A stretch of 42,620 nt of DNA from a virus, in the IMG/VR virus record IMGVR_UViG_3300036719_002804; one strand, written 5' to 3'. Of this stretch, positions 953 through 8,423 are shown one piece after another; position 1 is the stretch's first letter; every line of letters begins with the position of its first letter. Below the pieces are notes generated by a model that did not search any database, was not told the origin of the DNA, and saw only the letters and a program-made list of their open reading frames with translations. A program made the translations under genes and the position numbers.

Positions 953-994
953 GTGCTTGACGGTGCAGCACCTAGTAGGCAGAGTGGTGCTGCA
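951..994 (+). promoter_or_regulatory. Two mutually exclusive hairpins immediately after the RNAP stop codon
   Basis: AGGTGCT (951..957) pairs with AGCACCT (967..973). Alternatively TGCAGCACC (964..972) pairs with GGTGCTGCA (986..994). No U-tract follows. Confidence 0.4.
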
Positions 995-1005
995 ACTCTG
1001 CATGG

Positions 1006-1638
1006 ATGCAGCACAACATGGCGCGAGAGACCATGGTCACCCCACTGGGCGACCTGATGTGGGCAAAGATCCTGACCCCCGGTATCCAGAACGCCGGGAA
1101 GGCATCGGAGAAGGAGGCCTACAGCATCGAGCTGCTGATGCCAAAGGGGGACGCTGGCGCCCAGGCCTTCGTGAAGAAGCTGAAGCAGCTGTTCATCGCC
1201 GAGCACGGCGCTGCGGCCCGAACCGGCCAGAACGGCCTGCCGGTCAAGACCTACCTCGACGAGAAGGGCGACGAGACCGATCTGTGGAAGTTCAGTTTCA
1301 GCCGCAATGTGGCTACCAAGCGAGGCACGCCCTTGCCGCCGCCCATCGTCCAGGACGCCAAGGGTCAGCCATGGCCCGTGGACATGCTGATCGGGAACGG
1401 CAGCACCGGGAAGGTGGCTTTCACCTACTACTCCTGGGACAGCCCCGAAGGCGGCAAGGGGATCAGCCTGCAGCTTGAAGCGGTGCGGGTGATCACTTAT
1501 CAGCCGTACACCCCGCCTAACCATGCCGCGGCGTTTGGTGATGCTGAGGAAGGCTTCGCCCTGCCCGAGCAGGCGGCCGGCGAGCCGGATCCTTTCGGTC
1601 TTGGGGGTGAGCCGAGCGACGAGGAAATTCCCTTCTGA
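1006..1638 (+). CDS. T7 gp2.5-like single-stranded DNA-binding protein
   Basis: About 210 aa, positioned right after the RNAP gene. It has an acidic C-terminal tail ending in Phe (GGEPSDEEIPF), as in gp2.5. The start could instead be the ATG at 1018. Confidence 0.65.
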   Translation: MQHNMARETMVTPLGDLMWAKILTPGIQNAGKASEKEAYSIELLMPKGDAGAQAFVKKLKQLFIAEHGAAARTGQNGLPVKTYLDEKGDETDLWKFSFSRNVATKRGTPLPPPIVQDAKGQPWPVDMLIGNGSTGKVAFTYYSWDSPEGGKGISLQLEAVRVITYQPYTPPNHAAAFGDAEEGFALPEQAAGEPDPFGLGGEPSDEEIPF

Positions 1639-2027
1639 TGACGGTGCGCTCTGCCGACTTCGAGCTGCCGCTGCCGCTCCAGCCCAAGGCCAGGCCGCGA
1701 TTCAGCGGCCATGCCTACACCGACACCAGGTACGCCAGCTGGATGAAGCAGTGCCGGGCAATTCTCGGCGAGTGGTGGACGATCCCGCCGCTGCAGAAAG
1801 GGCAGCTGCTGTGTGTTCAGTTCACGTTCCGCGGGCCAGGCACCAGCGATCTGGACAACCTGGCCGGCGCCGTGATGGATGCCGGCAAGGGGATCCTCTG
1901 GGTCGATGACCGGGTGACGGTGCTCAAGCGAATCGTTGCCGAGTGGGAGCAATCCCCCAAGACCAAGCAATCAATCCTTCTCAAGGTGATCTGGGATGAG
2001 CAATCACAGCTACCCGCCCGTCGCTGA
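1638..2027 (+). CDS. rusA: RusA-family Holliday junction resolvase
   Basis: Contains SDLDNLAGAVMDAGKGILWVDDRV, matching the RusA D-x-DN...D...G...DD motif. 129 aa. TGATG overlap with the SSB stop. Confidence 0.75.
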   Translation: MTVRSADFELPLPLQPKARPRFSGHAYTDTRYASWMKQCRAILGEWWTIPPLQKGQLLCVQFTFRGPGTSDLDNLAGAVMDAGKGILWVDDRVTVLKRIVAEWEQSPKTKQSILLKVIWDEQSQLPARR

Positions 2028-2205
2028 CCAGAACTGCATCAACTGCAGGCACAGCCGGCCGATGAACAGGTGGGATCAGAACAGGGTCAAGTGCTGCCGG
2101 ATGGCACCACGGCCTGGCATCAATGACGGGGACTATGCGGTGTGGCCGCTGGTGCTCCGCGATGACTGGTGCGGGGAGTGGGCGCCCAGGGACGCAGGCC
2201 AATGA
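1996..2205 (+). CDS. Small Cys-rich (putative zinc-binding) hypothetical protein
   Basis: CINC...CC...C pattern. Overlaps the neighbours at both ends, consistent with translational coupling. Confidence 0.45.
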   Translation: MSNHSYPPVADQNCINCRHSRPMNRWDQNRVKCCRMAPRPGINDGDYAVWPLVLRDDWCGEWAPRDAGQ

Positions 2206-6530: not shown

Positions 6531-7048
6531 GCAGCACGACCAACCGCATTCCGCTGGCCCAGGCTCTAAATATCGCCAGCAGCATCGTGACTGAACTAGG
6601 CCCGTATTGCGATCAGATTGAAATTGCCGGCAGCATTCGACGCCAGCGGCCTACCATCGGAGATATTGAAATTGTTTGCATCCCGGCGAACTACGATGCG
6701 TCACCTCTATTCCGTTCTGGCATTGCCCTGGTAGTGGAGCAGTGGGAAAAAATCAGGGGCGAGCTTCCGTGCCGCTACACGCAGCGATTGCATCCCAGCG
6801 GGATGAAAGTGGACCTGTTCATGCCAGATCCTCGCGGGTTCGGCCTCCAACTGGCGATCCGCACCGGCTCCGCCGCCTGGAGCCATCGGGTACTGGCCCG
6901 CGCATGGGTGTGCGCTGGCTATCGCTCTGACGGAGGCCTGCTGCGCGACTTCGCTGGCCGAGTCGTTCCCACCACCACAGAGCGGCAACTGTTCGAGTTA
7001 ATCGGCCTGCCGTGGGTGGAGCCAATGAACCGAGAGGTGGCGGCATGA
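6527..7048 (+). CDS. Minimal family X DNA polymerase / Pol beta-like nucleotidyltransferase (173 aa)
   Basis: AGSIRRQRPTIGDIEIVCIP (cf. Pol X GSxRRGxxxxxDxDxL), KVDLFM (third carboxylate strand), AIRTGSAAWSHRVLARAWVCAGY (cf. YFTGS...) and the C-terminal TERQLFELIGLPWVEPMNRE (cf. Pol X sEeeiFxxLGLxYIpPexRe). AGGAGG at 6514..6519. ATGA overlap. Confidence 0.65.
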   Translation: MSSTTNRIPLAQALNIASSIVTELGPYCDQIEIAGSIRRQRPTIGDIEIVCIPANYDASPLFRSGIALVVEQWEKIRGELPCRYTQRLHPSGMKVDLFMPDPRGFGLQLAIRTGSAAWSHRVLARAWVCAGYRSDGGLLRDFAGRVVPTTTERQLFELIGLPWVEPMNREVAA

Positions 7049-7287
7049 GCACACCCACGAAATACCTCGCCACCGCCACCGCCGTGACGATCCATCGAGA
7101 GGGTGAGAACTTCTGCTTCGGCGAAGGTGCCACGACGCTGCAGATGGTGGACAAATGCGGTGGAGCGTTTTTCCTGCTCAGTCAAGAGGGGCGCGAACCG
7201 CTGCGGATGGAGTTGCAGGAGCTGGAGTTGCTGGTCGAAGAGGCCAGGGGACTGCTGGCCCAGCCTGGGGTTGAGGGAGAGACATGA
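7045..7287 (+). CDS. Hypothetical protein (80 aa)
   Basis: ATGA overlap start. Coding-like frame. Confidence 0.45.
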   Translation: MSTPTKYLATATAVTIHREGENFCFGEGATTLQMVDKCGGAFFLLSQEGREPLRMELQELELLVEEARGLLAQPGVEGET

Positions 7288-7472
7288 CCCTCCCTGCCAA
7301 CATCGAGCGCTGCCGAGGGTTCGGCGATGGCCCTGAGGATTGGCTGGAGGAATGCGAGACCTGCCAGCGGCGCACTGCTGCTGGTGGTGGGGTGTTCATG
7401 CAGCCGCCGCCGATTCTCACATTTTTCTGTGAGTTCAACATTCCTGCTTATGCCGCATGGAGGAAACCATGA
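7284..7472 (+). CDS. Small Cys-containing hypothetical protein (62 aa)
   Basis: ATGA overlap start. Contains C...C..C residues. Confidence 0.4.
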   Translation: MTLPANIERCRGFGDGPEDWLEECETCQRRTAAGGGVFMQPPPILTFFCEFNIPAYAAWRKP

Positions 7473-7645
7473 CCTTTGCCATCAAGCTACTGGCCGCCAA
7501 CGTAACCAGCTTGGCCGCCGTGATCGGCGCCATTGCCCTGGCCCATGCCGGCATCACTGGCTGGGGCTGGTTCCTGCTGATTGCCCTGATGACCACCAAG
7601 ACCGTCTACAGCAGCCCTAGCAAGGAGGAAAGCAGCGATGCCTGA
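7469..7645 (+). CDS. Small membrane protein (two predicted TM helices)
   Basis: GGAGGA at 7459..7464. ATGA overlap. Hydrophobic stretches LLAANVTSLAAVIGAIALA and GWGWFLLIALM. Confidence 0.5.
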   Translation: MTFAIKLLAANVTSLAAVIGAIALAHAGITGWGWFLLIALMTTKTVYSSPSKEESSDA

Positions 7646-8423
7646 CCCCACCCCCAGCCGCCCGCCGCTGCGGGAGGGAGTGAAAGCCCTGATTGATGCG
7701 GAGGTCTATCTGTTCCGCGCCGCTGCAGCCTGCGAAGTGGAGACGGAATGGGCGCCCGATGACTGGACCTACACCTGCCGTCACGGCGATGCCCAGGCCC
7801 TGTTCCAGGATGCCATCGGCGAGATCCGCGACACCCTCCCCGACCATCGCCCCGTGCTGGTGTTCGGCAGCCGCAACAGCTTTCGCTATGGCGTGTGGCC
7901 CCAGTACAAGGCCAACCGCAAGAAGCGCCGCACGCCCGCCGGCTACCGGCAGCTGGTGGACTGGGTGACCAAGGCCGGCCCGGCCCGCGGATGGCAGACC
8001 GCCGAGCTGCCCGACATCGAAGGCGACGACGTGCTGGGCGTGCTCCATGAGTGGGGCGACGTGATCTGCTCGATCGACAAGGACATGCTCACCCTGCCTG
8101 GCTGGCACCTGCGCAACGGTGAGCTGCGGGAGGTGAGCCTGCTCGATGCCGACCTGGCGTTCTACGCCCAGACCCTCACCGGCGACACCAGCGACAACTA
8201 CCCCGGCTGCCCGGGCTATGGCCCGGTGACGACGCAGAAGGCGCTGGCCGGCTGCACCAGTGAGCTGCAGATGTGGCAGGCCGTGCTCCAGGCCTTTGAG
8301 AAAAAAGGCTTCGGCGAGCACTACGCCATCACCCAGGCACGCTGCGCACGCATCCTTCGCGCTGGTGAATACGACCTCGAGAACCAGACTGTCCGCCTAT
8401 GGAGCCCCCCGGTAGCCTTGTGA
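7638..8423 (+). CDS. T7 gp6-like 5'-3' exonuclease (FEN/PIN family)
   Basis: ALIDAEVYLFRAA, WPQYKANRKK, IEGDDVLG, SIDKDMLTLPG and LTGDTSDNYPGCPGYGPVT match the FEN-type exonuclease motifs. AGGAGG at 7623..7628. Confidence 0.8.
   Translation: MPDPTPSRPPLREGVKALIDAEVYLFRAAAACEVETEWAPDDWTYTCRHGDAQALFQDAIGEIRDTLPDHRPVLVFGSRNSFRYGVWPQYKANRKKRRTPAGYRQLVDWVTKAGPARGWQTAELPDIEGDDVLGVLHEWGDVICSIDKDMLTLPGWHLRNGELREVSLLDADLAFYAQTLTGDTSDNYPGCPGYGPVTTQKALAGCTSELQMWQAVLQAFEKKGFGEHYAITQARCARILRAGEYDLENQTVRLWSPPVAL

Follow-up and report, generated by a model that had tools for sequence, protein, structure and literature searches.

T7, the textbook self-sufficient replicator, encodes a primase-helicase (gp4) and a DNA polymerase of family A (gp5), and the locus described here raises the question of how a phage with T7-like transcription and virion genes can copy its DNA with neither. 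The replication of T7-like cyanophages without a polymerase was put as a question in work on the MPP-C cyanopodoviruses (PMC9860041), and the phages considered here, those of clade S, go beyond MPP-C in that the helicase-primase is missing too. Here, we analyze a 42,620-nucleotide stretch of viral DNA, IMG/VR record IMGVR_UViG_3300036719_002804 (hereafter, the window, always meaning the whole stretch), focusing on three small genes at the gp4 position, which encode an NrdR-type Zn-ribbon protein with an added domain, an orphan 170-aa protein and a 72-aa product, and on the tail of the single-stranded (ss) DNA-binding protein (SSB). The window is the complete genome of a clade-S (S-SRP02-like) T7-like cyanopodovirus, and, alongside the loss of gp4, its SSB has exchanged a tail of the T7 type (...DDF) for one of the bacterial type. 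As a sequence, the window is one more clade-S genome; the useful part is the comparative result.

Absence of replicative polymerase, primase and helicase genes

The first 127 bases of the window are an exact copy of its end (42494-42620), giving a unique genome of 42,493 bp (G+C ~65%), the closed length stated in an earlier note that was made from the letters and predicted open reading frames (ORFs) of this DNA alone. Because this 127-nt overlap falls inside the gene for the RNA polymerase (RNAP), it is attributed to assembly circularization, not to a T7-type terminal repeat. The T7 hallmark set listed in the same note, namely a single-subunit RNAP, a gp2.5-like SSB, a resolvase, a gp6-like exonuclease and virion genes, was recovered in searches for Pfam domains, as was the integrase. 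The RNAP gene and the replication region comprise the following features.

40989..42620, plus strand: T7-type single-subunit RNAP, N-terminal and middle part (Pfam RPOL_N E 1.3e-14, RNA_pol E 5e-13), a stop-to-stop frame that continues across the circular junction into 128..952
1..952, plus strand: RNAP, C-terminal part (Pfam RNA_pol E 3e-34), bases 1-127 duplicating 42494-42620
1006..1638, plus strand: gp2.5-like SSB with the tail ...SDEEIPF (Pfam SBB_T7 E 1e-4, below the Pfam cut-off)
1638..2027, plus strand: RusA-type Holliday junction resolvase (Pfam RusA E 1.8e-7)
1996..2205, plus strand: 69-aa Cys-rich ORF with no family match in Pfam, PHROGs or NCBIfam
2169..3095, plus strand: 308-aa accessory ORF (PHROG 5931, function unknown)
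3092..3655, plus strand: NrdR-type Zn-ribbon protein with an added domain (Pfam Zn_ribbon_NrdR E 3.7e-10)
3649..4161, plus strand: orphan 170-aa protein, the second component of the set replacing gp4
4152..4370, plus strand: 72-aa ORF, the third gene specific to gp4-less genomes, with no family match, called as a gene on JGI and ENA contigs
4367-4606 and 4704-4928, plus strand: two small conserved ORFs, common to gp4-less and gp4-bearing relatives
4936-5070, plus strand: 44-aa ribbon-helix-helix (RHH)-like ORF, part of an accessory island
5067-6530, plus strand: methyltransferase with DUF4942 (Pfam DUF4942 E 2e-18, Cons_hypoth95; PHROG 32703)
6527-7048, plus strand: 173-aa stand-alone family X polymerase (Pol X), palm and thumb only (Pfam DNA_pol_B_thumb E 7e-7)
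7638..8423, plus strand: 5'-3' exonuclease/flap endonuclease at the gp6 position (Pfam 5_3_exonuc_N E 9e-13)

The earlier note had reported no replicative polymerase or primase-helicase anywhere in the genome and had named ORFs 3092..4161 and the large virion proteins as places where such a domain might be concealed. Profile searches of the ORFs and of the six-frame translation detected none there or elsewhere. Specifically, Pfam searches of every called ORF produced no primase, helicase or polymerase family other than Pol X, PHROGs searches, which took in the replication-region ORFs together with the large virion proteins and a number of unknown ORFs, yielded no polymerase, primase or helicase, NCBIfam searches of the replication-region ORFs yielded no replicative polymerase, primase or helicase, and the three large virion proteins matched no PDB sequence at E <= 0.01. 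Four gp4-type primase-helicases compared with the window by tblastn gave a best E of 0.23 among the matches listed, the best E of a gp4 profile in an unfiltered six-frame search was 2.3, and the family A polymerase (PolA) of P-SSP7, searched in six frames with filters off, had a best E of >4. With the same gp4 and PolA queries, positive-control genomes that carry such genes gave E 1e-65 or better, and S-SRP02 and MedDCM-OCT-S38-C3 gave no match. Strict Walker A strings number two in the window, one each in a virion protein and the tail fibre, and are chance occurrences. In a gene model built on third-position G+C, coding sequence covers 96.6% of the genome and gaps of 120 bp or more are limited to 8424-8561, 34133-34262 and 40770-40988; therefore, a hidden large gene has no space. 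As far as these tools show, the window is without a DNA polymerase of family A, B or C, a primase and a replicative helicase.

The window RNAP produced 1,968 matches to phage RNAPs. Among 50,697 phage records, the closest were those of S-SRP02 (48% identity), MedDCM-OCT-S31-C1 (40%), MedDCM-OCT-S37-C6 (39%) and MedDCM-OCT-S38-C3 (37%), every other phage being at ~27%, and a neighbour-joining tree of the RNAP places the window inside clade S. S-SRP02 and the clade S T7-like cyanophages have been described (PMC8790148, PMC12695635); the clade is reported to lack DNA polymerase, and S-SRP02 also primase-helicase (PMC12695635), so the loss of both is not new. S-SRP02 is the nearest cultured relative of the window, with 53% identity in the Zn-ribbon protein and 63% in the orphan (p028 and p029, respectively), and the two genomes share the gene order RNAP, SSB, RusA, Zn-ribbon protein, orphan, exonuclease, portal, a MarR-like gene and an integrase gene upstream of the RNAP gene, an inverted large terminase (TerL) gene and high G+C. 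Both phages have a picocyanobacterial host of fresh or estuarine water, which for the window phage is probably Cyanobium or Synechococcus. The two genomes differ as follows: similarity at the DNA level is confined to ~400 bp of the portal gene, the window additionally encodes the 308-aa ORF, the RHH-like protein and methyltransferase, the mini Pol X and a pentapeptide-repeat protein, and p014 of S-SRP02 has no homologue in it. This p014 (10903-11607), annotated as 'DNA polymerase III beta subunit', was considered as a clade-wide clamp and rejected, given its sub-threshold match over 32 residues (DNA_pol3_beta_2 E 0.0065) and its absence from the window.

The uncultured MedDCM-OCT group G9 (S38-C3, Stopalavirus; S31-C1, Nohivirus; S37-C6, Oinezvirus) belongs with the window to a deep RNAP lineage, at the 37-40% identity given above, and none of its members has PolA. 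S38-C3 possesses the window's replacement genes, whereas S31-C1 and S37-C6 still carry gp4 and only a short Zn-ribbon ORF, and represent the state before the gp4 swap.

Lack of a polymerase is also known outside this lineage. The MPP-C cyanopodoviruses (P-SCSP1/2; Cai et al. 2023) have no DNA polymerase and retain gp4 (PMC9860041), and in a survey of 2025 the polymerase was missing from several marine subgroups of the Autographiviridae (PMC12361551). Like the window, MPP-C phages are T7-like cyanophages with RNAP, SSB, endonuclease and exonuclease; unlike it, they keep a 539-aa gp4 as a core gene (present in P-SCSP1a), their SSB tail is T7-like (...AFEEEF) instead of host-like, their RNAP is only 26% identical to that of the window, and their genomes are 37 kb, A+T-rich and marine.

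Two public records in the lineage carry the label 'DNA polymerase I': p034 of S-SRP02 (22389-23129) and its homologue in S37-C6 (20750-21481). The window exonuclease matches only residues 5-205 of Pol I (NCBIfam), and no PolA was found in S-SRP02 or S37-C6; to judge from these matches, both labelled proteins appear to be only the 5'-3' exonuclease. In the S-SRP02 paper, ORF34 'DNA polymerase I' served as a polymerase marker in a tree (PMC8790148), and exonuclease-only 'DNA polymerase I' labels are unsuitable for such use.

Gene replacement and SSB tail change

To compare the gp4 position across the lineage, 80 IMG/VR loci were fetched by RNAP similarity and classified with profiles, alongside the reference genomes. 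The replacement type comprises 70 genomes or loci (S-SRP02, S38-C3 and 68 IMG/VR loci) and the gp4 type comprises nine (S31-C1, S37-C6 and seven IMG/VR loci); five loci were too short downstream to classify. In S31-C1 and S37-C6, of the gp4 type, RusA and the exonuclease are separated by a Zn-ribbon ORF of only 61 or 87 aa and, behind it, a complete primase-helicase of the gp4 type that has its own zinc-binding domain. In the gp4-less S38-C3, S-SRP02 and the window, the Zn-ribbon ORF is extended to 185-199 aa and followed by a conserved ORF of 150-218 aa, the orphan.

The orphan protein is encoded in 70/70 replacement-type and 0/9 gp4-type loci; the Zn-ribbon protein was matched in all 70 of the replacement type, nearly all detected with the profile of its C-terminal domain, and all nine gp4-type loci carry gp4 with the short Zn ribbon only. 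Thus, gp4 and the replacement genes co-occur in none of the classified genomes and loci, and the C-terminal domain of the extended Zn-ribbon protein is found only where gp4 is absent. The 72-aa ORF shows the same distribution at lower frequency (59/70 versus 0/9), as does the 69-aa Cys-rich ORF (39/70 versus 0/9). The small ORFs at 4367-4606 and 4704-4928 are present in 54 and 48 of the 70 replacement-type loci, respectively, and each in eight of the nine of the gp4 type. SSB was detected in 70/70 and 9/9; like RusA and the exonuclease, it is conserved in the two groups alike, and each group forms a clade in the RNAP neighbour-joining tree. PolA was not found near the RNAP gene in any of the classified genomes and loci. 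The replacement genes are not decayed gp4: the probability in hhalign profile-profile comparison is below 8%, and therefore the change is a non-homologous replacement rather than gene decay.

The Zn-ribbon protein consists of an NrdR-type Zn ribbon (residues 1-45), a variable linker, a Trp-rich helical domain (~98-155) and a conserved C-terminal helix (178-186). The helical domain has the invariant motifs WWN..R.SKH..ATWTE.AW and GVEHGWQALK, and the C-terminal helix reads P.DPAMLAAL..W. The NrdR-type label that the ribbon had received in the earlier note holds, both by the Pfam match and by the alignment with PDB NrdR 7p37 (E 2e-9, residues 1-69 only). In the AlphaFold 2 model (mean predicted local distance difference test, pLDDT, 78.8; 85-92 in the helical domain), Foldseek matched only the ribbon (root-mean-square deviation, rmsd, 2.4-2.6 Å over 46 columns), and nothing in the PDB matches the protein beyond it. 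The likeness to NrdR therefore concerns the N-terminal ribbon, which is NrdR's DNA-binding domain; there is no ATP-cone match (TIGR00244 covers residues 1-44 only, at 27 bits against a cut-off of 125), and the model has the helical domain instead. The family spans at least 154 metagenome clusters, and several samples yielded contigs on which the identical Zn-ribbon protein is encoded among the same neighbour genes.

The orphan protein, modelled with AlphaFold 2 at pLDDT 87.9 and a predicted template modelling score of 0.70, has no fold match (best E 4.1) and no sequence match in the PDB and no NCBIfam match, and none of 37 family members has a Pfam match even at E up to 10; as modelled, its fold is apparently new. 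Its family forms 45 clusters among 1.84 billion representatives, the ten longest of which have no Pfam domain and no fused domain. The invariant charged residues are D24, E44, E55, E73, R80, R88 and D122. Walker A/B or other nucleoside triphosphate (NTP)-binding motifs are absent from the orphan, from the C-terminal domain of the extended Zn-ribbon protein and from the 72-aa ORF product. Among the predicted viral structures of BFVD, the only strong match of the orphan is its S38-C3 orthologue. The next 49 matches, all weak, include nine to 'replisome organizer', two to 'replicative helicase inhibitor G39P, N-terminal' and one to 'putative helicase' (E 1.2-6.2; 59-86 residues aligned, with rmsd of 2-3.6 Å in all but one), an enrichment in the modelled folds that is to be read as a hint, not a match. 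A beta-clamp-binding motif was also considered for the orphan and discarded, the conserved Q106...L110-P111 misfitting the known consensus at its variable positions.

The C-terminal tail of the SSB differs between the same two groups. A tail motif [DE][DE]xP[FW] at the extreme C-terminus was found in 65 of 71 gp4-less genomes and loci (44/50 distinct tails), 68 of the 71 ending in P[FW], with ...EEIPF and ...EEVPF as typical endings. The motif is present in none of the nine clade-S loci that keep gp4, where endings such as VFNAAG, GLTTED and AEACPF are seen, and in none of 67 other gp4-bearing cyanopodovirus loci (51 of them also with PolA), nearly all of which end in ...D/E-D-F, the T7 type. 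The window SSB, ending in SDEEIPF, fits the bacterial SSB C-terminal pattern (SSB-Ct), that is, acidic residues followed by [IVLM]-P-F at the very end. In E. coli, PriA and other partners dock to the SSB tip. The same tip, DDDIPF, docks DnaG and the chi subunit of Pol III (PMC5872125, PMC3632105, PMC3045619). From the tails alone, the change is suggestive: it would be expected if the phage SSB must contact host instead of phage proteins.

Compared with what is on record, the replacement genes at the gp4 position, the SSB tail change and the rare accessory Pol X appear to be new.

Proposed use of the host replisome and the alternatives

The phage has its own RNAP for transcription, an SSB to coat ssDNA, RusA to resolve junctions and an exonuclease to remove flaps or primers; unwinding, priming and bulk synthesis are not encoded. 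Because the polymerase and gp4 are both missing, the host replisome would have to unwind, prime and copy the phage DNA, and we infer that host DnaB, DnaG and Pol III, possibly with Pol I, do this work. Use of the host polymerase is a published hypothesis for polymerase-less cyanopodoviruses (PMC9860041, PMC12361551), and the dependence on host replication proposed in the earlier note is the most economical reading of the genome, one that the SSB tail switch fits.

How the host enzymes might be brought to phage DNA is a further step. In the scheme that we propose, a site on phage DNA would be marked by the Zn-ribbon protein, which, jointly with the orphan and the 72-aa ORF product, would recruit or load host helicase or primosome components; the host-like SSB tip would attract partners of the host SSB, for instance DnaG, PriA or subunits of the clamp loader. 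The explanation that we find best overall, with confidence only slightly above even, is that of a clade-S phage that uses the host replisome, with the replacement genes as the adaptor. The narrower claim that the Zn-ribbon protein and the orphan recruit or load the host primosome, assisted by the SSB tip, would in our judgement fall somewhat short of an even chance. Similarly tentative is the more specific proposal that the three genes form an undescribed module that loads host DnaB and DnaG in place of the helicase-primase, with the SSB-Ct tip plugging into the host SSB network. The earlier note had floated the products of 3092..3655 and 3649..4161 as an initiator and a loader, and the circumstances speak for such a role (the gp4 position, the strict absence of gp4 alongside them, a ribbon of the DNA-binding type and the weak fold matches), whereas significant homology to a known initiator or loader was not found. 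The lambda O/P and SPP1 G38P/G39P systems offer a functional parallel only: there too, a small DNA-binding protein and a small partner adjoin in the replication module of a phage without a polymerase. They differ in that the window proteins have no sequence or significant fold homology to them, and no origin repeats were found.

Several observations weigh against the adaptor explanation. The mutual exclusivity of gp4 and the replacement genes reflects two sister clades and, as the RNAP tree suggests, may record a single event instead of repeated swaps. Acidic residues and an aromatic residue at the end are common to SSB tails of the T7 and the bacterial type, which makes the change suggestive and not proof. 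The BFVD matches of the orphan are individually non-significant (E 0.09-8), and the replacement genes have no significant sequence or fold similarity to a known initiator, helicase loader or primosome protein. Searches for direct and inverted repeats in the non-coding gaps and for k-mers shared with S-SRP02 and S38-C3 identified no iterons or conserved non-coding motif that would mark an origin; all that emerged in the way of an origin or operator were repeats due to codon bias and, in the attachment site (attP) region, GCATCC repeats. Finally, a purely transcriptional role for the Zn-ribbon protein is plausible from its sequence, because the ribbon matches Ogr/Delta-type transcription activators in 29 of 36 family members (best E 3.7e-6) and because the short form co-exists with gp4.

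This last point leads to the strongest alternative, in which the Zn-ribbon protein and its neighbours would be transcription regulators similar to NrdR and Ogr/Delta, and replication would start from R-loops made by the RNAP or from recombination intermediates produced by SSB, RusA and the exonuclease, with host restart assembling the replisome without a phage loader. The identity of the ribbon with the DNA-binding domain of the NrdR repressor and the Ogr/Delta matches agree with it, as do the conservation of SSB, RusA and the exonuclease in both clades and the lack of detectable loader or initiator homology, and the co-existence of the short form with gp4 in S31-C1, S37-C6 and seven loci implies an ancestral role independent of the absence of gp4. 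It leaves unexplained, however, the appearance of the C-terminal domain, the orphan and the 72-aa ORF at the very place and time of the loss of gp4, as well as the weak fold matches of the orphan to replisome organizers and the G39P N-terminal domain, and no NrdR-box-like or other repeated operator was found. On this evidence, we consider it rather unlikely.

Less likely than recruitment of the host machinery is a primase or helicase of a new kind among the three replacement proteins. Broadened to an unrecognisable primase, helicase or polymerase accessory enzyme residing in the orphan, the C-terminal domain of the extended Zn-ribbon protein or the 72-aa ORF product, which would make the phage less host-dependent, this possibility draws on the confidently modelled and apparently new fold of the orphan and on its many invariant charged residues. 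The authors of the MPP-C work likewise kept open a 'very divergent polymerase' (PMC9860041). Against it stand the small size of the proteins (170, ~95 and 72 residues), the lack of an NTP-binding motif in all three and the failure of any enzyme family to match by sequence or fold, and we regard it as improbable.

It is very improbable that the missing genes are an artefact of mis-assembly, of an incomplete or defective element, or of a satellite that borrows the replication genes of a helper phage. The window is indeed a metagenome-style circular assembly with a 127-nt overlap, but S-SRP02, a cultured and plaque-purified phage, matches it in gene content, the arrangement recurs in 70 related genomes and loci, the contigs with the identical Zn-ribbon protein come from several samples, and the genome, accounted for to 96.6%, has a full virion and packaging module. 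That the 173-aa Pol X is the replicative polymerase is scarcely credible, even though it is the only polymerase-like gene and its catalytic residues and GS motif are invariant, given that it lies in a hypervariable island, occurs in 2/70 loci, is absent from the close relatives L087, L007 and L015, from S-SRP02 and from every cultured phage, and belongs to a family of short-gap repair polymerases of low processivity.

The comparison singles out three small genes and an SSB tail of seven residues, all altered along with the loss of gp4, which makes host dependence open to experiment in the existing culture system of S-SRP02 and Synechococcus SR-C1. If the adaptor explanation is true, clade S would be a documented case in which a virulent-type T7 replisome was traded for capture of the host replisome.

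Accessory insertions, lysogeny genes and the remainder of the genome

Pol X, identified as such in the earlier note, is real: besides the Pfam thumb match, the 173-aa protein aligns with residues 156-315 (palm and thumb) of the Thermus thermophilus PolX 3AU2 (E 5e-11). It is probably active, because the GS motif (G35-S36) and D46, E48 and D96 are invariant in 24 family members, aligned with GDLD...VDL of 3AU2. Compared with bacterial PolX, it is without the 8-kDa, fingers and PHP domains, and the second catalytic Asp is a Glu; in size and domain content, it appears similar to the Pol X of African swine fever virus (174 aa). The stand-alone family forms 2,213 metagenome clusters, nearly all of 170-181 aa, some on contigs of 45-68 kb, and had no match in the 50,697 phage records, S-SRP02 included. 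Among related loci, Pol X was found in 2/70 and the methyltransferase in 1/70. Both lie, with the RHH-like ORF and three small ORFs, in a hypervariable 2.7-kb island (4912-7648) that is missing in the 95% relative L087 and different in the 96% relatives L007 and L015 (identities in the flanking genes). Pol X is an accessory gene and not the replicase of the clade; its family membership would point to gap filling or repair.

Two more insertions are evident from the same three relatives. The 308-aa ORF is a window-specific insertion (~2205-3079), absent from L007, L015 and L087, which are 95-96% identical around it, and from all 84 related loci, and the local G+C is lower there. The label 'ParB-like' that had been attached to 2169-3095 finds no support in Pfam, NCBIfam or the PDB, and PHROG 5931 is the sole match. 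The pentapeptide-repeat gene is likewise an insertion, with DNA of 15-nt periodicity; L007, L015 and L087 join 38131 directly to 38628.

The features beyond the replication region are the following.

9403-29983, plus strand: portal, scaffold, capsid, tubular proteins A and B, internal proteins and tail fibre (Pfam domain searches)
30939-32102, minus strand: endolysin, glucosaminidase and YkuD (Pfam)
31864-32379, plus strand: gp18-like small terminase TerS (DNA_Packaging_2 E 9e-5), converging on TerL
32369..34132, minus strand: T7-type large terminase TerL, inverted relative to the virion genes (Pfam Terminase-T7_RNaseH-like E 8e-35)
34621-35076, minus strand: MarR-like ORF (domain search)
36692-37780, plus strand: ArdC-like protein of the early region, ArdcN and MPTase-PolyVal zincin (Pfam)
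38120-38632, plus strand: pentapeptide-repeat protein (Pfam E 4e-44)
39435-39752, plus strand: MarR-like ORF (MarR_2 E 9.5e-5, below the cut-off)
39783..40769, plus strand: tyrosine integrase (Pfam Phage_integrase E 2e-19)
40888..40950, plus strand: degenerate tRNA-Met(CAU)-like remnant (Rfam tRNA 17.1 bits, sub-threshold)

The T7-type virion and packaging genes gp8, gp10, gp11, gp12, gp17 and gp19 are all present (Pfam Head-tail_con, Gp10A-like, Tube, Phage_nozzle, Phage_T7_tail and Terminase-T7). The T7 order ascribed to them earlier stands only in part: TerL and the endolysin are on the minus strand and TerS converges on TerL. Autographiviridae have all genes on one strand in T7 order, and the window does not fit this pattern, a block at 30939-35675 with TerL, the endolysin, a MarR-like ORF and other ORFs being on the minus strand, inverted relative to T7.

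Of the 54 related loci that were informative, 44 have an integrase gene immediately before that of the RNAP, and all 44 are in the phage (non-integrated) configuration. An integrated copy was not clearly seen in 185,579 species-representative genomes, where only six contigs of metagenome-assembled genomes were found; the longer of these have sizes like those of phage genomes, the hosts under which some were binned are implausible, and one of them, L087, is collinear with the window across the attP region. The tRNA-Met-like remnant just 3' of the integrase scores 17.1 bits against a gathering score of 29 (E 0.7 in a 401-nt search), and ARAGORN found no intact tRNA. Its surroundings (40805-41054) contain flanking GCATCC and TGCCGAAAT repeats and a 10-nt inverted repeat, and this is probably an attP core with arm-type sites. 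The temperate lifestyle suggested in the earlier note is only a potential one: the gene content (the integrase, the MarR-like genes and the attP-like remnant) suggests a capacity for lysogeny, with no integrated copy clearly visible and every integrase locus examined in phage form.

Three minor observations concern other parts of the genome. The 1,316-aa internal virion protein (20520-24470) has a weak match to PARP/ADP-ribosyltransferase (residues 1095-1164, E 7e-5, 22.8 bits against a cut-off of 26.7), and this region could be an ejected effector domain. An 'antirestriction protein' is annotated in S38-C3, and the window has the ArdC-like protein. An Rfam scan detected no RNA family at threshold; the early region contains a repeated intergenic unit (36110-36174, 36523-36567, 36773-36837, 37817-37864 and 39754-39780) made of a short CTGCTGGTCTCACCAGCAG-like hairpin followed by a CACCACCACCACCACC leader that runs directly into the ATG of the next ORF. 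The unit may serve as a site of RNA processing or as a terminator, combined with a leader that has no Shine-Dalgarno sequence; it recalls the RNase III sites that separate the early genes of T7.

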